From a virus (Duplodnaviria > Heunggongvirae > Uroviricota > Caudoviricetes): a stretch of 32,278 nt of DNA. Positions 1,958 to 32,278 of the stretch are shown in pieces (position 1 is the first letter of the stretch; each line of letters starts with the position of its first letter). The translations under genes were made by a program, and so were the position numbers. Where the stretch lies: IMG/VR virus record IMGVR_UViG_2897375277_000010; one strand, given 5' to 3'. Under the pieces are notes generated by a model that was not told where the DNA came from, did not search any database, and saw only the letters and a program-made list of their open reading frames with translations.

Positions 1958-4405
1958 TTAACCGTCATGCATCATGCTGGCACGGGCGCGCGCACGTTTA
2001 TCCCGCTCGTATTTTTCGAGCGCATCCTGTAACTGGCGGTCAAGCTGTGTCCCCGGCGCAGTACCACCCGTCAGGCTGATGTGATATTCGTTTTTACTCT
2101 GGTCTACATAAGAGCGGCCAGCCGGTGCCGTGACCGGCTGATAAGCCTGATAGCCTGCATAAGAGCTGGTCGCCGGAATATAACCACCGGTGCCATACGT
2201 GGCGGCATTAGTCCTTGCGGCGGTCTGGTCAAGTGTGTCTGACTCTTTGTTGATAACACCGAGTTTTTCCAGTACCCAGTCAATACCACTGCGCAGTTTG
2301 TTGAACGCATTAAGCGGCAGCATCAGCGCATCAGCCAGTGCCTGCCCGAACATGACCCCCGTGTCACGGCAACTGTTCAGGGTGTCCTGAGTGGCTTTGA
2401 CCGGGGCAATCAGGTTTTTAAACCACTGCCACGCGGCCTGTAACTTTTCACCCAGCCAGTCAAACACCGGCTTAAGTGGCGTGAACAGTTCCCCCACCGG
2501 CGCAAATGCCACTTTCAGCCCTTCAACCACACCGCCAAAGAATGCGCTGACAGGCTCCCAGTATTTACGGATAAGCAACGCCCCGGCGACAATTGCGGCC
2601 ACCACGGCCACAACCGGCCAGCTAATCGCCCCGATGGCGGTCATAACAGCACTGCCAACCGTCGTGAAGACTGCCCCCATTGCGCCTGCTGCCGCGATGA
2701 TGGCATTGATGCCGGTGATAACCGGCCAGGCTACAAGACCAATGGCACCGATGATGCCAGTCAGCACCAGTGCGCCACCGGCAATGAGGCCGATGGTTGA
2801 CGCCAGTGATTTGTTTTTCTGTATCCAGCCGTCGAGTTTTAACACATACTTTGTGGCCATCTGCGTGAGCTTACGCAGCGCACCTTCCTGCTGGTCAAAC
2901 AGGTCAGTCCCTACCGCCTCATAAGCGGACTGAAACTCCTTAAAGTCACCGCCGAGGTTGTCCTGCATGATATTTACCAGCTCCGCGGCCTTCCCGTCTG
3001 AGGCTTTAAACGCAGCGGTCAGTTTGTCCAGCTTTCCGGTTGAGGCGGCAGTAATCAGCACGGCGGCGGCTGAGCTGGCCTCCTCCCCGAAAATGGTTTT
3101 CATGTATTCAGCCTGCTGGGCAGTACCGAGCCGGTTTTTCTCAAAACTGGCCTGCATTTCTTTCAGAATGGTAAATATTGGCCGGGTGTTTCCCTTGCTG
3201 TCTGAGGTTTTCACTCCAAGCTCTTTGAGAGCATCCCATGCTTTTCCCGTCGGTGCCTGCAGGCGGCTTAACACGGCACGGCTTCCCGTCCCCGCCATTG
3301 AGCCTGTGATTTTTGCATCATGCAGCGCCCCGACCATTGCGGCGGTTTCTTCAATGCTGACACCGGCATTTTTTGCCACAGGTGCGGCATAGGTCAGCGC
3401 ATCGCTCATGCCGTCAAAATCGGCGGCGGTTTTGTTCATCGTCATGGAGAGAACATCCCCGATATGAGCGACCTTATCGTTTGAAAGCTGAAAGGCGGAT
3501 TTCATCCCCATCAGCAGGGCGGCGTTTTCTTCCATCGTGCGGCGGTTCGCCAGCGCCATATTCAGCGTGACCGGCGTTGCCGCCTGAATGGCATCAACAT
3601 CCCCACCGGCTTTCGCAATAATAATCTGCGCACCGGCTGCATCATCTGCCGAGGCGGCGGTATTGTCGCCAAGCTGACGCGCCTGTTTGCGTAGTGCGGC
3701 CATTTCGGTGGAGTCTTTTGCCACTCCGAGCACAGCCTGTAATTCTGAGTTTTTCTGCGCAAACTCATAACCGGGCATCAGCAGCTTAACTCCGGCCATC
3801 GTTCCCGCCGCCGCAATCCCCACACCGGCAGCGCCCACTGAGGCCATATTTCCGGCCAGTTCCTTTCCGGCCTGATAACGCTGTTTTACTGCGTTAAGTT
3901 TTGCCTGTTGTGCACTGACACGCGCCAGCGCGTCACGCTGACGGTTAAGCTGTGCGGTGGTTTCACTGATACGGTTTTTCAGCCCTCGTTCATCATGCGC
4001 CAGATTACGGGTATTAATACCCACCTGACTTAACTCCTGACGCTGGCGCTGTACCGACAATCTCAGGCTGTTATATTTCGCCTGTAACTCAGACGCATTT
4101 TTACGCGCGGCTTCCATTGCCTTTGCCTGTGCATTTGTCGGTCGTTCAGTATTTTTAAACTGGACAGCCAGAGCTGCGGCTTCCTGTCTGGCTTTTTTCA
4201 GTTCCTGACCAGTCACGGCGAGCTGTGCACTGGTCTTGCGAAATCCCTCAATACGGGATGCCTGACCGTTCAGCTCGCGCAGTGATTTTTGTGTTTCCCG
4301 GATATCCCCCGACAGCGATTTGCTCGCTGTGCGGATGGATTTAAACGGGCGGGATGCCTGGTCAACAGCCCTGAGCAATACCTGTAATTTTACATTGTTA
4401 CTCAT
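1958..4405 (-). CDS. T: Tail tape measure protein T, 815 aa
   Basis: 815-aa ORF with coiled-coil N-terminal region and Gly/Ala-rich hydrophobic central segment typical of tape measure proteins; ATG at 4403-4405; P2 gpT length. Confidence 0.9.
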   Translation of the reverse strand: MSNNVKLQVLLRAVDQASRPFKSIRTASKSLSGDIRETQKSLRELNGQASRIEGFRKTSAQLAVTGQELKKARQEAAALAVQFKNTERPTNAQAKAMEAARKNASELQAKYNSLRLSVQRQRQELSQVGINTRNLAHDERGLKNRISETTAQLNRQRDALARVSAQQAKLNAVKQRYQAGKELAGNMASVGAAGVGIAAAGTMAGVKLLMPGYEFAQKNSELQAVLGVAKDSTEMAALRKQARQLGDNTAASADDAAGAQIIIAKAGGDVDAIQAATPVTLNMALANRRTMEENAALLMGMKSAFQLSNDKVAHIGDVLSMTMNKTAADFDGMSDALTYAAPVAKNAGVSIEETAAMVGALHDAKITGSMAGTGSRAVLSRLQAPTGKAWDALKELGVKTSDSKGNTRPIFTILKEMQASFEKNRLGTAQQAEYMKTIFGEEASSAAAVLITAASTGKLDKLTAAFKASDGKAAELVNIMQDNLGGDFKEFQSAYEAVGTDLFDQQEGALRKLTQMATKYVLKLDGWIQKNKSLASTIGLIAGGALVLTGIIGAIGLVAWPVITGINAIIAAAGAMGAVFTTVGSAVMTAIGAISWPVVAVVAAIVAGALLIRKYWEPVSAFFGGVVEGLKVAFAPVGELFTPLKPVFDWLGEKLQAAWQWFKNLIAPVKATQDTLNSCRDTGVMFGQALADALMLPLNAFNKLRSGIDWVLEKLGVINKESDTLDQTAARTNAATYGTGGYIPATSSYAGYQAYQPVTAPAGRSYVDQSKNEYHISLTGGTAPGTQLDRQLQDALEKYERDKRARARASMMHDG

Positions 4406-22938: not shown

Positions 22939-23478
22939 TCAATCATCATGATGAGAGAACCTAGCATTTACTATTCTTGAGTGAAGATTGTTTGCAAATG
23001 ATAAGTTGCTTAAAATAACACTAAACACACACTTTATTTGTAACCAGCACATAAAATAAACAAAGGTGATTCCAATCATTCTAATAAGATCAGAATACAC
23101 CACTGAACTCGATAGCACAGAGCCTATTGATTTAAACAGATAAACAAACAAGATCGAAAGCATTACTACTGCTGAAGTAATTACAACGTAAATTAGCTTT
23201 TCAATTCGAGGTGCATCTTTCGTATTCTTTATGTAATCAACATCATCATTGACAATGCTTGCAATTGCATTCGGATATAAAAAACCAATCCATAATCCAA
23301 CTATGGTAAAAATTGCAGCAGATATGTTTTGCAAAACACCCAGTATATCTTTTATATCACTATAGTTAACATGAGCTTTCAGCCAATAGGAGGCCGCAGC
23401 AATTAGAAACAGAATTAACAAATTCCATTTCCATTGTATTATCAATGCCTTTAAATCCTTACTTGTTTGAGGTGACAT
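22939..23478 (-). CDS. Predicted four-helix integral membrane protein, 179 aa; candidate effector of a two-gene cargo operon
   Basis: ATG at 23476-23478 immediately follows the TAA of the upstream gene (TAAATG); four hydrophobic segments of about 20 aa each; strongly AT-rich. Confidence 0.75.
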   Translation of the reverse strand: MSPQTSKDLKALIIQWKWNLLILFLIAAASYWLKAHVNYSDIKDILGVLQNISAAIFTIVGLWIGFLYPNAIASIVNDDVDYIKNTKDAPRIEKLIYVVITSAVVMLSILFVYLFKSIGSVLSSSVVYSDLIRMIGITFVYFMCWLQIKCVFSVILSNLSFANNLHSRIVNARFSHHDD

Positions 23479-24489
23479 TTATGCCTCCGCCGTTTTTAAA
23501 GATTTTTCTTCCACCTCTTCATTATAAAGGATTGTTTGGAGTAAATCATCACGAACAGCCTTTATTTCATGAAGGAGTTTTTCTGGAGAGAAATGCTCAT
23601 CCCCGGTAGAATCGCTGACAATTAATGCAGTTCTCGCCATATATTTTTTTAACCATAATGGGCGAGATGAATCTTTAAGAACAAAGCCAACATCAACCCA
23701 GTCAACATCATCTACATTTCTATCCAATAGTTGTTTTATTTCCTCTTCCGAAGGAGCGCCATCTACTCGAACCTCAATTTTTTTAGGTTTTGTAAACTTG
23801 GTTTGTTCTGTTCCCAAGAAATCCGATAGTACATTACTCACCAGACGTAATAACGGTTGCCGGGTATCCTCAACTTTTGCAACCGTAGTATCACGAATAA
23901 TTGTCTGAACAATTTTATCTCGTACATCAAGAATATTCGTCCCTGGTTTATTAACCTTCGTCACTTCAGCCTTAAATTTAAAAACGCAATTACACTTGCG
24001 TCCATTTTCATCTACATGCTTGAAAATTGTTTTAGAAATAAGAATGTCATCTTCCGAACATGAAGAACGAGCTCTAGTAAATGAGGTAGTATCCTTTTCC
24101 CTACCAAAATCACCGTGATTTACTACAAAATTAAAAATATAATTGCTTAACCTCGGTGTATCTGCACCTGAATGAGGAAATATAATGGATGCAATCTTGT
24201 TATATTCAGGAATTATCCAATAATAACATGGCTCAACCCAAATATAGTCTTTTCCATTCGTTTCTGTCTTTACTGTATCATTTTCTGTAGCACCAACAGG
24301 TGCGTTTTTTTTAACAGCGTGCAAACGTCCCTTCGCGGAACCTAATGCACGATACATTACCATCACCCGATCTTTTGTATCTGGATCGACAGCCACTCCT
24401 CGTGAGTAAGTTCTGGCTCTTAGCGGATGAGTTCCCGTATCCCACGGAATTGACTCCTCAACGCTTTTGTCATCAAGCCAAGCCTGCAA
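23479..24489 (-). CDS. Soluble cargo protein of unknown function, up to 336 aa (292-294 aa if started at the ATGs at 24363 or 24357)
   Basis: Long AT-rich ORF; first in-frame start is a TTG at 24487-24489 with no Shine-Dalgarno sequence, and internal ATGs lie at 24361-24363 and 24355-24357. No motif assignable by eye; tightly coupled to the downstream membrane protein. Confidence 0.7.
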   Translation of the reverse strand: MQAWLDDKSVEESIPWDTGTHPLRARTYSRGVAVDPDTKDRVMVMYRALGSAKGRLHAVKKNAPVGATENDTVKTETNGKDYIWVEPCYYWIIPEYNKIASIIFPHSGADTPRLSNYIFNFVVNHGDFGREKDTTSFTRARSSCSEDDILISKTIFKHVDENGRKCNCVFKFKAEVTKVNKPGTNILDVRDKIVQTIIRDTTVAKVEDTRQPLLRLVSNVLSDFLGTEQTKFTKPKKIEVRVDGAPSEEEIKQLLDRNVDDVDWVDVGFVLKDSSRPLWLKKYMARTALIVSDSTGDEHFSPEKLLHEIKAVRDDLLQTILYNEEVEEKSLKTAEA

Positions 24490-24763: not shown

Positions 24764-24970
24764 CTATCGTCTGCGTGGTGGTGGCGCAACTCTGGACTGA
24801 CCGATATAGTTAAACCGCCCGTAATTATCCCGGACTATTTCGGCACACCCGACTAGCTCATCGGGCGTCAGATTTTCGTTGACCATAATCTGCTGTAGAC
24901 GGTGAACAATGGCCATCAGCTTGATATTTTTAGTTTTATGGTGCGGTATCTCGCCTGGTATTCTGTGCAT
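24764..24970 (-). CDS. Small hypothetical protein, 68 aa, translationally coupled to the upstream ASCH-like gene
   Basis: ORF track 24764..24982 begins at a GTG; the ATG at 24968-24970 overlaps the upstream stop (TAATG); last gene of the early operon before a 274-bp gap. Confidence 0.5.
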   Translation of the reverse strand: MHRIPGEIPHHKTKNIKLMAIVHRLQQIMVNENLTPDELVGCAEIVRDNYGRFNYIGQSRVAPPPRRR

Positions 24971-25425
24971 TATCCAAGCCACCCATTTTGCTTTGCACGC
25001 TCCACCTGTTCATCTGAATAGTTCCATGCTCCATCCGTGGCAACCATTGCCCCGCCAGACATCCCCGTCTCTGGTTCATACATAACAGCAAGGCCGAGCT
25101 GATGCATAATTTCATGATTAATTCTGAATACCAGGCCACGCTCACTAAGTTCTTTCCAGTTCACAATCTTATATGCGCCCGTATTAAGCAGCTCAATACT
25201 TAGCAAGACATAATCTTCCAGCCAGTCTGACAGGTCAGTAACGTCTGTTATCCGGGCTTCAACCTTTCGCCCCGTAAACACACCCTGCACCCATTCATGC
25301 AAAATCAACGTGTCCCCGCGCTCATAATTACGGTCATTTTTCCGAAACTCTGCGCGTTTCTTTCCTTCCAGCACAAGGTCAAAATATTTTGCGTGCAGCT
25401 TTACCTCGTGAATTTTTGCCATCAT
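24970..25425 (-). CDS. ASCH-like (PUA-fold) domain protein, 151 aa, translationally coupled to A
   Basis: ATGATG start at 25420-25425 overlaps the A stop TGA; GGAG upstream; contains GKKRAEFR, which fits the ASCH GxKxxExR signature; the C-terminal part carries an HEIMH (HExxH) motif. Confidence 0.65.
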   Translation of the reverse strand: MMAKIHEVKLHAKYFDLVLEGKKRAEFRKNDRNYERGDTLILHEWVQGVFTGRKVEARITDVTDLSDWLEDYVLLSIELLNTGAYKIVNWKELSERGLVFRINHEIMHQLGLAVMYEPETGMSGGAMVATDGAWNYSDEQVERAKQNGWLG

Positions 25426-27707
25426 TTCCACTCCATTACTGTTGAAAATCCCGGCCACTCATCAGCGACCGGATACGTGAATTTTTTCCCGTCATAATTT
25501 ACGGTTGCGCCACGCGCCAGCGCCTCAAGCTCCCATCGCTGCGGCCTGATACCGTTCTGAGCAAGGTCAACGCGGATACGGGTAATTTGCATTCGTTCCG
25601 ACCGGGTCAGTCTGGCAGATGGTGCAATTTCATGCGGTTTTAACGGGCTTCCGTTTCTTTGCTGACGGTTTGATGTTCTCAGGCCGTGTTTTAATGCACC
25701 CCTGAGCGCCCTCACGACCTCCGGGTCATTCCATTCGATAACACCGTCATCAACCAGATTAAGCACTGCTGCGGCGTGCTCAGAAGGTGTGGGAGCCGGT
25801 AACGCAGTATCACCGCCGGTGAGCTTTCCACAGTTATTGACAGGACTCCGAGGCGCGGCGATGCCGCTTTTTAAAGTCAAAGGCTCAACGACAGGAACTT
25901 TCGGAACAATGCGCCAGTCCGTGGTTCTGGTGATATGAATATGACGCGCGCCGAGATGCGGCGCGTAAATGCCGACCACTCTCTCGACTTCTTCCTCGTA
26001 CTCGTTAACGTCATCCGACGGGCTACGGGCGACCCTGACAGTCTGACAATCGCGCGGGACATTTGCCCCGCCCTGCGCGCTGATATACAACGCAAAATCA
26101 CCACTGTCTGCAGCGGCGCGTGCAGCCTCGACGCGCTCGTCAAACTCATCAGCAATGCTGACGCCGCGAGGCAATTTGCGTAGTTCACGGTAAGCCCCCA
26201 TTGTCGGCAGACCAACCGTTTTAAATTGCGGGATGCGCCACGTTGACGCCCATGCGGTAACAGCCGCGGCAGTATCTTTCAGCGGTCTGCCGGTATCATT
26301 ATCGAGCTGACCATCCAGTGCATAGCCGTCGATATTTTTTGAGATGTATTTCGCGATATACCCCGCAGCACCGCCCCGGTTAAGATGTTTTGCCTGAAAA
26401 CGGTTTCGCGCGGCTCCTCTTTCGTCTCCATCCTCTTTGAGCGCGTAGCGACGCATGATTTCAATAATCTGGTTACGCTGGCGTGGATTACAAAAAAGCA
26501 TCATATGCCAGTGCGGCGTTCCGTCGTGGTGTGGCTCGACGACACGCAAACCGTAGACCTGTAAATCATTATCCTTGAATGCCGTGCGCATCAGGCTCCA
26601 GATACGGCAGAGATAACGCTGCGCATCCTTTGGATTAAATGCCTCATCGTTCCAGCCGTGATTAAGCTGCACGGTTTTACTTTCGCCTTTTCCGACCTGA
26701 CGTGTCGGGTGATACTTTGACGGCGCGGTCAGCGTGATAAACATCCCCACATCGCCCTCTGCGGCGGCGTAACGCTCAATACCGGCAATGGTGTTCATCA
26801 ACTCCATCCGACGAATTTCAGGATTAGAAATACTGCCCATCACCTTACTGATAAGGTCGATGCGCTCGCCGGTTTCCCTGTTTTCGAGGTCACACGATTT
26901 AAGAAATTCCAGATTTGCCTGGCGGCGAGCACGCACATCACGAATGGCGTGTTTACTGGCATAAGGAGAACGGTCTTTATTCACCTCCCCGACAGCAATC
27001 AGTAACGCCTCATGCCAGCGCATACGCTGGCCTTTAAGCTGATGAGTCCACCACTCATCGTTAAACAGACGGGCAATGGCAGAATATGCCTGCCTCGTGG
27101 TCATCAGTCCTTTACGGTATTTTTTCCAGTAGAGAGGGGAAATATTGAAAGCACGTGCAGCGCCAGCAACATGACCATAGAGGTGAGCCTGCGCCTCATC
27201 CGTAAACAGCGATTCTTTCTCGCCATGCGCATCCACCCAGGCATCGCAGAGTTCCCCATACATCATGAAAAGCTGTGATGAGATACGGGCGGCAAACTTT
27301 TTCAGCTCCTTGTCATTCATCCCCGGCAGGCGCGCATACTGGTCGCGCTCTGCCAGAAACAGCAACGACGCGTCGGTGTTCATTTCATGGCGCTGATTCA
27401 CGCGCTCAATGCGCGGCCATAAACGACGCTGAAAAGTGGATGTGAGGAAATAAAACCCGTGCACCGGGCTTTTATTGCGCCGGATGTAGTCATAGCGTGA
27501 AGTAAACAGCGAGCGCAAAAAGTAAGGCAGGCGGTTAATCGTGGATAAAACACCTTGCACCTGACGCATCTCGTCACGTGTAAGGGGTCTTTCGCGCCCG
27601 ACAGCCTCGCGTGGCGCGTTCCATGCATAAGCACCGGTAAACGCCTTACCGGTGCCTGCAGCAAATGCTGACGGAGGGACAAAACGCCCGGAGGCTTTAA
27701 CGGTCAT
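25422..27707 (-). CDS. A: Replication initiation protein A (rolling-circle nickase), 761 aa
   Basis: ORF track 25422..27749; start chosen at MTVKASGRFVPPSAF... (ATG 27705-27707) to give the P2 gpA length of 761 aa. Confidence 0.88.
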   Translation of the reverse strand: MTVKASGRFVPPSAFAAGTGKAFTGAYAWNAPREAVGRERPLTRDEMRQVQGVLSTINRLPYFLRSLFTSRYDYIRRNKSPVHGFYFLTSTFQRRLWPRIERVNQRHEMNTDASLLFLAERDQYARLPGMNDKELKKFAARISSQLFMMYGELCDAWVDAHGEKESLFTDEAQAHLYGHVAGAARAFNISPLYWKKYRKGLMTTRQAYSAIARLFNDEWWTHQLKGQRMRWHEALLIAVGEVNKDRSPYASKHAIRDVRARRQANLEFLKSCDLENRETGERIDLISKVMGSISNPEIRRMELMNTIAGIERYAAAEGDVGMFITLTAPSKYHPTRQVGKGESKTVQLNHGWNDEAFNPKDAQRYLCRIWSLMRTAFKDNDLQVYGLRVVEPHHDGTPHWHMMLFCNPRQRNQIIEIMRRYALKEDGDERGAARNRFQAKHLNRGGAAGYIAKYISKNIDGYALDGQLDNDTGRPLKDTAAAVTAWASTWRIPQFKTVGLPTMGAYRELRKLPRGVSIADEFDERVEAARAAADSGDFALYISAQGGANVPRDCQTVRVARSPSDDVNEYEEEVERVVGIYAPHLGARHIHITRTTDWRIVPKVPVVEPLTLKSGIAAPRSPVNNCGKLTGGDTALPAPTPSEHAAAVLNLVDDGVIEWNDPEVVRALRGALKHGLRTSNRQQRNGSPLKPHEIAPSARLTRSERMQITRIRVDLAQNGIRPQRWELEALARGATVNYDGKKFTYPVADEWPGFSTVMEWK

Positions 27708-27972
27708 ATGAGCCAAAAGCCTCTGAACAACGCCTGCTGAGTTGCTCAACCTGCGCGTTTAAATCAGCAAAAGACTTTGCGCTTCCGGTCAGAATATCGT
27801 GATGCATCAGGCCGGAAACGAGCTGGCTTAATTTCGGATAATAACCAACCACCGCCAGCCATTCCTGACCGGCGTTTTTACCGCTTTCCGCTCTCTTTTT
27901 CTCGTGGAGAATAAACTGAAAGCTGTCACTGGTAACGACATAACGTTCGCCAATTTCAATACGAATACTCAT
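27697..27972 (-). CDS. Early-operon hypothetical protein, 91 aa (P2 orf83 position)
   Basis: 91-aa ORF whose ATG overlaps the stop of the upstream zinc-finger gene (ATGA); position between that gene and A. Confidence 0.6.
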   Translation of the reverse strand: MSIRIEIGERYVVTSDSFQFILHEKKRAESGKNAGQEWLAVVGYYPKLSQLVSGLMHHDILTGSAKSFADLNAQVEQLSRRCSEAFGSYDR

Positions 27973-29015: not shown

Positions 29016-29516
29016 TTAATGCAGATATTGCTCTGGTTTTACCGACGTCAGAATTGTCGGTGCATACTCAAACAGACTGAATAATTCACGTAATGCACGG
29101 AATAAAGCATCACGCCAGTAACATGATTCTTCATTAATTCGCCAGTACGGCTGGTTAAATTCTTTTTCTGTCAGTCGTGCGTGCATAAATAAAGTACGGC
29201 GCTGACTGACTGTTAAAAAACTAATATATGCATACTCACTTGCACCGACCTGACGACGTTTTGAGAATGCCCCACGCAATTCATCAATTGCACAAACCAG
29301 CCGTTCACGTTCGACGTCGTTCATTTCTTCAAAACGCATCGTTGCGTGACGCTGTTTTAACTGCGCATGGAAGCAAACTGTTAGCCGTTCGCGCTCCATC
29401 ATCTGATTATAATAATCACATGTATCCTGCCAGCGAGGAACGGCAAGATGCTTACCAATTATCCGGCGCATAGCTGCTGGCTGTTTTTCAACGAGATTGA
29501 GCGTCATCACTGTCAT
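29016..29516 (-). CDS. B: Replication protein B (helicase loader), 166 aa
   Basis: 166-aa ORF (MTVMTLNLVEKQPAAMRRIIGKH...), P2 gpB length; ATG at 29514-29516 overlapping the upstream stop. Confidence 0.85.
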   Translation of the reverse strand: MTVMTLNLVEKQPAAMRRIIGKHLAVPRWQDTCDYYNQMMERERLTVCFHAQLKQRHATMRFEEMNDVERERLVCAIDELRGAFSKRRQVGASEYAYISFLTVSQRRTLFMHARLTEKEFNQPYWRINEESCYWRDALFRALRELFSLFEYAPTILTSVKPEQYLH

Positions 29517-29683
29517 TTCCAGACCCTCCGGCTTTTCAGAAAGGTCAGAGCCTTCTTTAACGAACTCTGTTTTTTGGTGCGGATAATGATTCCCTTGCGT
29601 CCTTTCCCGTGGGTGATGGTGAAGTCAATCGCCCTAGGGCTTTCGTTACGCAATAACTGAGCAATACAACGAGGTTCCTGCAT
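29513..29683 (-). CDS. Small basic early protein, 56 aa (P2 orf78 position)
   Basis: ORF track 29513..29761 starts at a TTG; the ATG at 29681-29683 is preceded by a strong SD (AGGAGGAG, 4-nt spacing); stop overlaps the B start. Confidence 0.6.
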   Translation of the reverse strand: MQEPRCIAQLLRNESPRAIDFTITHGKGRKGIIIRTKKQSSLKKALTFLKSRRVWK

Positions 29684-29783
29684 AACTCCTCCTGAAACAG
29701 AGCCGGTTTTTAGCCATGTCCGGCACATGGTCTTGTGGTAAGATCGAATCGCCAAAAACAACCAACCACAAGCGAGGTAATAA

Positions 29784-29978
29784 ATGAATAATCAAAATAT
29801 TGACGAACTTATAACCACTCTCGAAAAAGCGGTTGCATTAGCAAATACCCTACCAACTCCAATGGGAGATTTTGAGGACGCTAAAAAAGTGGATGAATTA
29901 ACTATTCAATTAAGAGAGATCATTCACCCTAAAAAGCCAGTCCAACTCAAAGGCTTTATTGATATAAATCATTTTTAA
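29784..29978 (+). CDS. Antisense small protein, 64 aa, hydrophilic, AT-rich, with its own promoter-like and RBS signals
   Basis: ATG at 29784 preceded by GAGGT with 6-nt spacing; an extended -10-like TGgTAAGAT at 29735-29743; convergent with, and overlapping by 23 bp, the 154-aa minus-strand gene. Confidence 0.45.
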   Translation: MNNQNIDELITTLEKAVALANTLPTPMGDFEDAKKVDELTIQLREIIHPKKPVQLKGFIDINHF

Positions 29979-30420
29979 AATAGCATCTTGCATCCGTATG
30001 CTGTTTATACGGATGCGTCATCATGTCAAAAATACTTTTCCAGTCATCAAGCCCTATTGACCATTTAATACTATTTATATCGCCTGATTTAGAAATTATC
30101 GTTTCACGAAGAGCCTTAGCGAGTTCCATGCGCTCTTGAACGGTCATACCAACGCATTCATATTTAATGCGCAAAAAAGAGTCATGAAATAAAGATTTCA
30201 AATTCAGCCGTAGAATTTCTTCATCACCATCTGAACTAATAAAAACAAGTTCATCATTATCCAAAATGATATTTTGTTTTCTCAATTCATCGGCTGATTT
30301 ATATTCTTTCGTACTATTAGCAAACTCACTATACGTAATAGTCAGGCTGTTAGATGGTGATGCATCTTCAAGGTTTCCTCTGATGATAGTCACCGATGTT
30401 TTATTTAAATCTTGCCTCAT
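29956..30420 (-). CDS. AT-rich hypothetical protein, 154 aa, translationally coupled downstream of cox (moron)
   Basis: ATG at 30418-30420 preceded by AAGGAGGAG, which directly follows the cox TAA stop; AT-rich; acidic Asp/Glu-rich protein with no recognisable motif. Confidence 0.7.
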   Translation of the reverse strand: MRQDLNKTSVTIIRGNLEDASPSNSLTITYSEFANSTKEYKSADELRKQNIILDNDELVFISSDGDEEILRLNLKSLFHDSFLRIKYECVGMTVQERMELAKALRETIISKSGDINSIKWSIGLDDWKSIFDMMTHPYKQHTDARCYFKNDLYQ

Positions 30421-30429
30421 GGCTCCTCC

Positions 30430-30786
30430 TTAGGCCGCGTGGCCATGTCTGGATTTGCTGTAACTTATGCGGTTCTTCCAGTCATGCCATTCTGTCGGAG
30501 CTTCATCGACTAGTTGAGCTGCATATTTGTCCCACTCACGACGATTAATCCATAACTCAGCGTGACCGCCCGGCTTTAACGGGTCTGTCATATAGAATGC
30601 TGGCAGCTTTCCAGCTCGTGCCATTTCAGCCACCGCACGAGGAGTCTTACCGATGTAAAGAGCAAAACCCTCTTTCGACAGTAAATCTGACGGATCCGCA
30701 GCCAACTTAATGGAATCACGCTTGTTTTTTTTAAGAGCAGAAACTTCTTGTCTTTTCTCGTCACAAATTTCAGATCCGACATTCAT
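30430..30786 (-). CDS. cox: Cox-like excisionase/early repressor (HTH), 118 aa
   Basis: First gene of the minus-strand early operon, divergent from C; region YIGKTPRAVAEMARAGKLPAFYMTDP resembles the P2 Cox HTH region; GAGGAT RBS 7 nt upstream of the ATG at 30784-30786. Confidence 0.7.
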   Translation of the reverse strand: MNVGSEICDEKRQEVSALKKNKRDSIKLAADPSDLLSKEGFALYIGKTPRAVAEMARAGKLPAFYMTDPLKPGGHAELWINRREWDKYAAQLVDEAPTEWHDWKNRISYSKSRHGHAA

Positions 30787-30889
30787 TTTGCTATCCTCAC
30801 ATTGATGTCAGCGATCTAGAGCGATTTAGAGTCGTTAGATGCTGATAAATCATATCAACTATGCAAAAGAATACGAGGTTAGAGAATTT
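30787..30889. promoter_or_regulatory. Lysis-lysogeny switch region (divergent Pe/Pc promoters and putative C operator repeats)
   Basis: 103-bp gap between divergent cox and C; tandem 10-bp direct repeats GCGATCTAGA / GCGATTTAGA at 30811-30830, reminiscent of the direct-repeat operators bound by P2 C. Confidence 0.5.
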
Positions 30890-31189
30890 ATGTCAACTGA
30901 CACTAGCGAACGTTTGAAGCTTATCCGTGAGTCTGAACGTCTGAAAATGAAGGAGGTAGCTGAACTAGCTGGCATCAACTACACCACATATGCAGGTTAT
31001 GAATCAGGTAAGGCTATGATGTCCCTAGAAAATGCTAAGAAGTTTTTTAAAGTAGAAAGGTTCAGAAAATACCGTGACTGGTTCATGTTTGATGAGACAG
31101 ATCCCGCTGCCGGACAAATAGCCCCGGCGCTCGCACACATTGGGCAAGACTCAACAACCTTGCACCACTCAGACCAAAAGACTGGCTGA
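30890..31189 (+). CDS. C: Immunity repressor C (HTH), 99 aa
   Basis: ORF track 30839..31189; ATG at 30890-30892 with GAGG upstream gives 99 aa; C-terminus ...GQIAPALAHIGQDSTTLHHSDQKTG recognised as P2 C-like; upstream of int. Confidence 0.8.
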   Translation: MSTDTSERLKLIRESERLKMKEVAELAGINYTTYAGYESGKAMMSLENAKKFFKVERFRKYRDWFMFDETDPAAGQIAPALAHIGQDSTTLHHSDQKTG

Positions 31190-31282: not shown

Positions 31283-32278
31283 ATGTCTATTAAAAAGCTC
31301 GATGATGGTCGTTATGAAGTGGACGTCAGGCCGCAGGGTGCAGATGGAAAACGTATCAGGCGGAAATTTAAAACTAAAGGTGAAGCCCAGGCATTCGAGC
31401 GTCATGTCCTGGTTAACTACCACAACAAAGAGTGGTTGGAGAAGCCGGCCGACCGCCGAACTCTTACAGAGTTGTTAGGCAGATGGTGGATATATCACGG
31501 AAAATCACATGAGCGTGGAGATATTGAACGGGGGCGTTTGACGACAATAATTGCCAAATTTGCTGAGATGGGAGTGTCCAGGGCGGACCAGCTAACAAAG
31601 AAAACGATAACTGATTATCGCGTTGTAATGATGAACGACGGTCTAAAACCAGCCAGCGTAAATCGGCATCTGGCAATAATGAGCGGGATGTTCACCAAGT
31701 TAATTGACGCCGGTGAATATCACTCTCACAACCCGTTCCGTGAGGTGAAGCGGTTACGTGAAGCTGTTACGGAAATGGCTTTTTTGTCCAGTGAAGAGAT
31801 TACGCGGCTGCTATCCATGCTTGATGGTGATGAATTAAATGCGACTCTGGTCTGCCTTTCTACTGGTGGACGCTGGAGTGAAGTGTCTAATTTAAAAGCT
31901 GAACACATCATTAACCAAATGGTTACGTTTATGAAAACCAAAAACGGAAAGCGCAGGACAATTCCCGTTTCGCAGGACTTGATTAAACGGATCAAAACCA
32001 AAAATTCTGGCAGGCTTTTTAATGCCAGTTACTACAAAGTGCGCAACGCTCTCAGGGAAGTAAAACCCGATTTACCTGACGGACAGGCAGTGCATGTTTT
32101 GAGGCATACATTTGCCACACATTTTATAATGAATGGAGGTAACATAATCACATTGCAGCGCATCCTGGGTCATTCTAACATTCAGCAAACTATGACCTAC
32201 GCACACTTTGCACCGGATTTCTTACAAGATGCTGTGACTCTTAACCCGGTGTCAGGAATGTCCATAATGCGTCCATAA
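31283..32278 (+). CDS. int: Tyrosine site-specific integrase, 331 aa
   Basis: N-terminus MSIKKLDDGRYEVDVRPQGADGKRIRRKF... P2 Int-like; C-terminal catalytic region HVLRHTFATHF...LGHSNIQQTMTYAHF carrying the His/Arg/Tyr residues of tyrosine recombinases; reads outward at the prophage end. Confidence 0.9.
   Translation: MSIKKLDDGRYEVDVRPQGADGKRIRRKFKTKGEAQAFERHVLVNYHNKEWLEKPADRRTLTELLGRWWIYHGKSHERGDIERGRLTTIIAKFAEMGVSRADQLTKKTITDYRVVMMNDGLKPASVNRHLAIMSGMFTKLIDAGEYHSHNPFREVKRLREAVTEMAFLSSEEITRLLSMLDGDELNATLVCLSTGGRWSEVSNLKAEHIINQMVTFMKTKNGKRRTIPVSQDLIKRIKTKNSGRLFNASYYKVRNALREVKPDLPDGQAVHVLRHTFATHFIMNGGNIITLQRILGHSNIQQTMTYAHFAPDFLQDAVTLNPVSGMSIMRP

Follow-up and report, generated by a model that had tools for sequence, protein, structure and literature searches.

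The window analyzed here is the whole stretch of 32,278 nucleotides (nt) of viral DNA in IMG/VR record IMGVR_UViG_2897375277_000010, an almost complete P2-like (Peduovirus) prophage of Escherichia coli. We have studied a small open reading frame (ORF) of 64 amino acids (aa), found on the plus strand within the minus-strand early operon, where it converges with a gene coding for a 154-aa protein. The ORF is a genuine small-protein gene; in our estimation there is about an even chance that it forms a self-contained unit of the moron type, set against the P2-like early operon. The locus has the following features:

29686–30430: AT-rich insert of 745 bp, the whole two-gene cassette, from the cox stop to the orf78 start.
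29702–29744, plus strand: promoter-like core GCCGGTTTTTAGCCATGTCCGGCACATGGTCTTGTGGTAAGAT, near-identical ahead of unrelated ORFs.
29745–29783, plus strand: leader, a CA-rich unstructured 5′ untranslated region CGCCAAAAACAACCAACCACAA, with the Shine-Dalgarno (SD) sequence GAGGT at 29774–29778.
29784–29978, plus strand: 64-aa ORF with an ATG start, WP_001064716.1, a RefSeq "hypothetical protein" called by the annotation pipeline PGAP.
29956–30420, minus strand: 154-aa early-operon gene, WP_001248439.1, convergent with the 64-aa gene; its SD sequence AAGGAGGAG overlaps the cox stop.
29990–30016, plus strand: perfect 10-bp hairpin GCATCCGTAT / ATACGGATGC with a 7-nt loop, 12 nt past the plus stop.

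Most of this layout had been given in a preliminary description, and it is found as described: the 272-bp gap between minus-strand genes (29684–29955, between the 154-aa gene and the orf78 homologue), the 64-aa ORF, its 23-bp overlap with the 3′ end of the 154-aa gene (29956–29978), and the perfect hairpin after the stop, which lies in the last codons of the 154-aa gene. Two details have been corrected. The SD sequence GAGGT is present, but it is 5 nt from the ATG, not 6. The extended −10 element TGgTAAGAT is also present, but one base further on, at 29736–29744 and not at 29735–29743.

Homologues of the 64-aa protein have 62–64 aa, some of them with a GTG start. They are found in IMG/VR contigs, in one Logan contig, and in Citrobacter and other assemblies, and form nine 90% clusters, with the frame intact in all of them. 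When the window is compared with one of these homologues (locus L016), the differences at codon positions 1, 2 and 3 are 19, 5 and 34. The dN/dS ratio in the frame of the ORF is 0.15, 0.24 and 0.20 for three pairs among three diverged lineages (Nei-Gojobori, first 56 codons), while the two alternative frames give values from 0.66 to 6.5. This pattern of substitutions identifies the 64-aa ORF as a real protein-coding gene under purifying selection.

The 64-aa protein is acidic and has no membrane segment. A PDB sequence search with its profile matches designed helical repeats only; its shape is probably a helix-loop-helix. Neither this protein nor the 154-aa protein has any match in Pfam, PHROGs, PADLOC or NCBIfam, and the PADLOC defence models do not match their homologues either. 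Comparison with a family of 58–60 aa whose members end in KYP gives a hhalign P of 6e-4 with 29% probability over 48 colinear columns, and pairwise z-scores of 3.5–3.7. A distant relationship of the 64-aa family to this KYP family is thus suggestive, not established.

The similarity to P2, L-413C and dozens of relatives stops exactly at the start of orf78, at 29685. In both L-413C and classical P2, orf78 follows cox directly. The GC content is 0.32–0.37 in the insert 29686–30430 (composition test: 29800–30400), against 0.46–0.50 in the flanks. Of 5426 complete E. coli genomes, only 4 contain the identical cassette, and the products of its two ORFs are listed there by PGAP as hypothetical proteins. 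E. coli strains DAX4, A3024, BUCT2930 and EA2 are lysogens with this cassette. The alignments demonstrate that the cassette is an insertion relative to classical P2 and L-413C, and that the 64-aa and 154-aa genes came together. Morons are known in temperate phages, for example bor and lom of lambda, gp15 of HK97, and old, tin and Z/fun of P2. Like them, the unit described here is an extra segment between otherwise adjacent conserved genes; it is present in some phages, absent from close relatives (P2, L-413C), and its nucleotide composition differs from that of the surrounding phage genes. The neighboring genes are as follows:

25422–27749, minus strand: gpA.
Interval between gpA and gpB: small early genes, coding for DUF5405, TraR/DksA zinc finger and DUF2732 proteins.
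29016–29516, minus strand: replication gene B (gpB), downstream of the orf78 homologue.
29513–29683, minus strand: orf78 homologue of 56 aa (phrog_273, 5.9e-40; L-413C annotation), with its ATG at 29683 and the SD sequence AGGAGG; downstream boundary of the cassette.
30430–30786, minus strand: Cox-family excisionase/repressor (Pfam Phage_Cox, 8.6e-29; RefSeq annotation), first gene of the early operon and upstream boundary of the cassette.
Beyond the Cox gene, plus strand: C repressor, then integrase (31283–32278).

The promoter-like core contains an inverted repeat CCATGT-CCGGC-ACATGG (29714–29730), followed by TG (29736–29737) and the −10 hexamer TAAGAT (29739–29744). Such an arrangement suggests promoter activity, with a predicted transcription start near 29750–29752. 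The core with its palindrome occurs only once in the window. On inspection by eye, no LexA, CRP, sigma-54 (GG-N10-GC) or Ogr (TGT-N12-ACA) site fits the leader. We have compared 47 distinct leaders. The TG and a TAnnnT −10 hexamer are kept in all of them (T1, A2 and T6 are invariant); the hexamers are TAATTT (17), TATTTT (15), TAGGAT (6), TAAGAT (3) and others. The conserved core across the 47 leaders is (T)GCCGGG-TTTTAG-CCATGYCCGGCRCATGG-TYTTGTGG. Beyond the core there is a stem-loop at the predicted 5′ end or, in the window, a short CA-rich stretch; then come the SD sequence and the start codon. The SD sequence and the ORF follow the leader at a fixed position, and nearly all leaders have them.

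Some other features of these leaders were also noted. Most long leaders (L026, L029, L030, L038, L042 and others) have an 8–10-bp stem-loop right after the −10 hexamer, GTTATGCCGC...GCGGCATAAC or GCGCCC...GGGCGC, with which the predicted mRNA would begin; the window lacks it. We considered the G-U wobbles in these stem-loops as an indicator of the strand, with mixed evidence, and have dropped them. In two 186-like contigs (L010 and L007) an imperfect inverted repeat of about 16 bp, CCTATTGGTAACCGCC ... GGCGGTTGCGAATAGG, precedes the leader core by about 45 bp; it occupies the space that separates the leader from the SD sequence of the next minus gene. Two other sigma-70-like matches are present in the window: TTGAGA-18-GATAAT within the 154-aa gene (30256–30285, minus strand) and, where the 64-aa ORF ends, TTGATA-16-TAGCAT (29959–29986, plus strand). 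Both are probably by-products of the AT-rich composition.

The same core may be read in a different way: as a plus-strand terminator, or as a recombination or boundary sequence, and not as a promoter. In this case the 64-aa gene would be transcribed from elsewhere or sporadically. In fact, 38 of the 47 distinct leaders have a 6-bp stem CCATGC/GCATGG (CCATGC-CCGGC-GCATGG) directly followed by TTTTGTGG, which satisfies simple criteria for a plus-strand terminator. The closing pair of the stem varies (T-A, C-G, T-G, C-A), and the breakpoints of the cassettes fall at the edges of the element. On the other hand, there is no upstream plus-strand gene in need of a terminator, TG and TAnnnT are invariant, and the SD sequence and ORF are found at a fixed distance. 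In the window the T-run after the core stem is degraded (TCTTGTGG), while the −10 hexamer is good. Tandem copies of the element, described below, each precede a cargo gene. We regard this reading as highly improbable.

The region adjoining orf78 is not restricted to this cassette. Its 67–86 bp (29686–29771) are found in 60 of 5426 E. coli genomes, mostly ahead of quite different genes. A shared segment of 45–90 bp stands ahead of unrelated ORFs in phages of E. coli, Yersinia and Salmonella, as well as in IMG/VR, where one exact-pattern scan gave 17 contigs and a second one 58. The cassettes may be classified as follows:

Type A: 64 aa on the plus strand, 154-aa family on the minus strand; the type of the window.
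Type B: 68 aa on the plus strand, 198 aa on the minus strand.
Type C: 58 aa and 62 aa; also in Yersinia phages vB_YpM_115 and 117.
Type D: 62 aa and 199 aa; adjoins a 186-type cII.
Type of Salmonella phages SEN4 and SEN5: flanked by the repressor on one side and a cox-like gene on the other.

The same leader is found in types A, B and D ahead of different ORFs; loci of type E have no SD-led ORF directly behind it. Altogether, about 17 unrelated families of plus-strand cargo genes are found behind the leader, and 13 families of minus-strand neighbors. PHROGs matches of the proteins in sister cassettes correspond to families of "unknown function" only. The cargo families include:

Proteins of 58–60 aa ending in KYP.
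Proteins of 68–78 aa, of 95 aa and of 151–158 aa.
A YegP-like protein.
Acidic peptides of 39–45 aa, followed by two-transmembrane proteins.

Plus and minus genes are combined in different ways. A minus family (EKPHQK...) is paired with three different plus cargos, and its C-terminal tail varies from one cargo to the next. The plus family ending in KYP has three minus families as partners, and some plus cargos have no abutting minus ORF. Since sister cassettes shuffle their plus and minus genes independently, the recombining unit looks like promoter, ORF and terminator, into which the minus ORF reads until it finds a stop codon. The best explanation of these comparisons is that the leader serves as a portable platform, reused by P2-like, 186-like and SEN4-like phages for unrelated plus cargos at the boundary between accessory-early and replication genes.

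Several individual loci deserve mention. One early minus family (..EKPHQKLLLVFPGKPQ..) is found in four loci (L028, L030, L031 and L039) with C-terminal tails which differ (137, 162 and 202 aa) according to the abutting or overlapping plus cargo; these minus proteins look chimeric at their 3′ ends. In L012 (IMGVR_UViG_3300012135_000057, about 2830–3560) there are two tandem copies of promoter and leader about 535 bp apart, each with its own cargo: a 60-aa ORF, and then a 45-aa acidic peptide with a 153-aa two-transmembrane protein. The repeated homology begins where the neighboring minus gene starts and extends as far as the first few plus-ORF codons. Two Shiga toxin-producing E. coli genomes, 2013C-4830 (L006, NZ_CP027325.1, locus 2589–3817) and 2012C-4227, contain an insertion sequence of the IS3 family within the leader, after ...CAAAAACAAC. 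It splits the promoter-like core from the 68-aa ORF of type B; the same prophage has a frameshift in cox and a truncated gpA. The first 86 bp of the leader region are found again, without any mismatch, at 39743–39828 of NZ_CP134387.1 (E. coli TUM11352), an 88-kb record annotated as a plasmid; this strain has a chromosomal copy too.

The hairpin behind the plus stop has a minimum free energy of −17.4 kcal/mol (z −4.1), a value reached by none of 200 shuffled sequences. Among the 597 segments of 40 nt spanning both ORFs, no other is as stable. In seven of nine cassette variants, corresponding to five of six independent families, the most stable 40-nt fold of the gene pair begins no more than about 25 nt from the plus stop, usually in the last codons of the convergent minus ORF; the chance of such a recurrence in five of six families is estimated at about 5e-5. 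L016 and L023 differ by paired (compensatory) substitutions in the stem while the encoded tail of the minus protein changes, and in other lineages the stem is kept by means of wobble pairs. In four loci (L003, L029, L033 and L054) a plus-strand T-run is found behind the hairpin, as in an ordinary intrinsic terminator. Given the T-run in several relatives, we interpret the recurrent hairpin as a terminator lying within the final coding part of the convergent gene. In the window it is likely to be the 3′ end, or a stabilizer, of the plus transcript. A simple consensus scan found no minus-strand terminator in the 272-bp gap, therefore transcription of the early operon is expected to cross the unit.

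Such a geometry brings to mind lambda OOP, a 77-nt non-coding antisense RNA transcribed from pO, which converges with the pR operon and overlaps the 3′ end of cII. The present unit resembles OOP in being short, with a promoter-like start and an end hairpin. It, too, is placed downstream of an early regulatory gene and converges with the early operon, so that the final part of its transcript would be antisense to the 3′ end of the early mRNA upstream. The cassette of 186-like relatives is found one gene downstream of cII. The unit might thus function mainly at the level of RNA or transcription, through convergent transcription and antisense 3′ overlap, the ORF being secondary; in lysogens it would damp leaky read-through from the promoter Pe into the 154-aa gene and orf78-B-A. 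In every case the unit is located within an early operon, where it is directed against Pe and lies immediately upstream of the replication genes. Besides the 23 bp of overlap between the ORFs, its RNA would overlap the 154-aa mRNA by about 61 nt if it ends at the hairpin. No cargo is nearly as well conserved as the promoter and leader, and the leaders of type E, with no SD-led ORF directly following, also fit this idea. However, OOP is non-coding, while this unit encodes a protein under clear selection, with an SD sequence, and nearly all leaders have an SD sequence and an ORF behind them. A promoter of the extended −10 kind, weak as it is, would hardly block Pe, and a search of Rfam at the gathering threshold and at E ≤ 10 gave no match. 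We find this explanation improbable. A regulatory antisense unit was one of three options in the preliminary description: a purely non-coding role is contradicted by the coding signal, but an added antisense effect is possible.

The 154-aa product is soluble and acidic. Its family is very rare, with about four true relatives in all: an exhaustive HMMER pass over 1.84 billion representatives found only two of full length (144 and 139 aa) and one 53-aa fragment. The protein has no sequence match to any family, to defence systems or to the PDB. A weak phmmer match of residues 82–145 to helicase-associated (HA) domain repeats (P0006, E 4.6e-7) is a lead only; Pfam gives no support for an HA-domain link in the 154-aa protein itself. 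Another match (P0004) is a low-complexity artefact and has been discarded. AlphaFold2 (AF2) models of the protein, alone and with a 3-sequence alignment, have a predicted local distance difference test (pLDDT) score of 39 and 49, which makes them unusable. We have detected six diverged lineages of this family, with 136–154 aa and 32–42% identity to the protein in the window. In all six the gene lies between the Cox gene and a small plus ORF, with a 3′ overlap of 4–23 nt, and the pairing holds across Cox proteins of 88, 118/119 and 153 aa. The preliminary description had set conservation of the small ORF beside the 154-aa gene as a check. The small ORF passes it: every 154-family gene found adjoins the small ORF, which is under purifying selection.

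This constant association suggests another possibility, a dedicated two-gene module in which one of the two proteins, the 64-aa protein or the 154-aa early protein, serves as antidote to the other or regulates it, in the manner of esc and sieB. Of the pair, one would be expressed constitutively from the prophage and the other from Pe only, so that leaky or untimely activity is neutralized by direct binding. Lineages of 154, 144, 139 and 136 aa each abut a 62–64-aa homologue, both genes are under purifying selection, and their 3′ ends overlap. Moreover, the 154-aa family is not found elsewhere among the 1.84 billion representatives, and a protein as small, acidic and helical as the 64-aa product looks more like a binding partner than like an enzyme. 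But the two genes lie within 700 bp of each other, so linkage alone can explain their co-inheritance. In sister cassettes with the same leader, plus and minus genes have been recombined independently, and some plus cargos have no minus partner at all. No toxin, antitoxin or defence domain was found in Pfam, PHROGs, PADLOC or NCBIfam, and the AF2 monomers are of low confidence. On balance such a module appears somewhat unlikely.

Comparison with known toxin-antitoxin (TA) systems bears on the same question. As in the type I systems txpA/RatA and bsrG/SR4, the two genes face each other, their 3′ ends overlap, and a constitutive-looking promoter drives one of them. In those systems, however, the toxin is a small hydrophobic peptide; here the candidate would be a soluble acidic protein of 154 aa, and the antisense partner codes for a protein (dN/dS 0.15–0.24). 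These defining features of a type I system with 3′ overlap are lacking in the unit. It does not look like a type II system either: those are co-directional operons with known folds and families, while here the genes converge and there is no family match in Pfam, NCBIfam, PADLOC or the PDB. Obligate co-occurrence, another feature of type II systems, is found in all six lineages, although adjacency alone could explain it. The sieB-esc pair of P22 and lambda resembles this locus, as we read it, in having a gene expressed from the prophage inside the early operon, paired with a function of lytic growth. There is no sequence relationship, and sieB and esc share reading frame and orientation, unlike the genes described here. 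The antitoxin-like partner suggested by the preliminary description thus fits the strict co-occurrence, but adjacency suffices for that, sister cassettes shuffle independently, and, apart from co-occurrence and 3′ overlap, those defining features of TA systems which could be examined are lacking.

The third option of that description, a moron expressed in lysogens, is favored by the comparison: P2 and L-413C lack the unit, whose DNA is AT-rich and includes a conserved promoter-like leader as well as an end hairpin, and many unrelated cargos share this leader. Like the known morons, it has promoter-like and terminator-like signals of its own which face the surrounding operon, and to judge from the sequence it would be expressed from the prophage. 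It also differs from them. The moron sites described for P2, which hold old, tin and Z/fun, are A-Q and G-FI, while this unit lies at cox-orf78, inside the early operon. Many unrelated cargos are found behind one conserved promoter and leader, the terminator hairpin lies within the coding end of a convergent gene, and the product has merely 64 aa.

We propose the following model for the moron-type unit. A sigma-70 extended −10 promoter (TGgTAAGAT, with a weak −35), a short CA-rich leader, an SD sequence, the ORF and a strong embedded hairpin would make up the unit. In a lysogen the C repressor silences Pe, and the plus promoter would fire unopposed, giving a transcript of about 270 nt which would be translated into a small helical protein. 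This protein would probably bind another protein and have an accessory or lysogenic-conversion function. When Pe fires, after infection or derepression, strong convergent transcription and antisense pairing should shut the plus unit off. C repressors of the P2 type do not respond to SOS induction. Expression from the repressed prophage is thus probable; its timing, termination at the hairpin and the role of the protein are inferred from the arrangement of these signals.

Several observations weigh against this model. The best −35 is ATGTCC with 17-bp spacing, which matches the consensus at only three of six positions. A simple consensus scan did not call the promoter of the 64-aa gene: the extended −10 was not listed because there is no good −35. 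The terminator-like look of the core in most loci means that part of its conservation may serve another role. In the window no T-run follows the hairpin on either strand, which makes termination uncertain, and read-through past the hairpin would enter cox in the antisense direction and, further on, C and int in the sense direction. Finally, within the A family the small gene is never seen without a 154-family gene, which would also fit a dedicated two-gene system.

A broader extension of the moron-type model may be imagined, which at present we consider rather doubtful. P2-, 186- and SEN4-like phages would carry an "expression socket", a conserved promoter and leader which is directed against the early operon where accessory genes give way to replication genes, and which takes swapped small genes expressed from the prophage. 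The mRNAs would encode proteins of about 60 aa and also act as antisense RNAs by way of their embedded hairpins. They would form sense/antisense two-gene modules with a toxin-antidote or defence-escape logic, switching automatically between lysogeny and lytic growth.

Some other features of the prophage were noted outside the cassette. Between gpA and the portal gene, at the hotspot known from classical P2, a pair of minus-strand genes (22939–24489) matches PDC-M18, a candidate defence system of PADLOC; component B has 179 aa (E 7e-17) and component A 336 aa (E 8e-27). Just downstream of gpA, a 162-aa ORF with ASCH/DUF3850 and DUF7415 domains (24970–25458, minus strand) overlaps the 3′ end of gpA as listed. 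The longest ORF of the C repressor (30839–31189, plus strand) has 116 aa, while the RefSeq product has 99 aa and starts at MSTDTSERL; the 17 extra codons would overlap the Pe/Pc region.

Two moron positions have been described in P2-like phages, A-Q and G-FI (PMC3573123). The integrase-primase (int-gpA) interval appears in a 2026 survey as a minor defence hotspot only (PMC13586616). The papers searched in full text contained no description of the leader, the cassettes or the site, and no mention of the RefSeq accessions.

For the window alone, the result is mainly a corrected annotation, with one real small gene. If the promoter is active in lysogens, the consequences are wider. The cassette site would be a third, so far undescribed moron position in P2-like phages, inside the early operon. 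The shared leader would be a handle for searches: a single 25-nt motif retrieves dozens of uncharacterized small proteins, expressed from prophages, together with their convergent early partners. These genes, which are now annotation dark matter, would be plausible sources of superinfection-exclusion, anti-satellite and host-takeover or antidote functions. Terminators embedded in convergent coding ends would offer a compact natural case for the study of transcriptional interference and sense/antisense coupling at the lysis-lysogeny switch.

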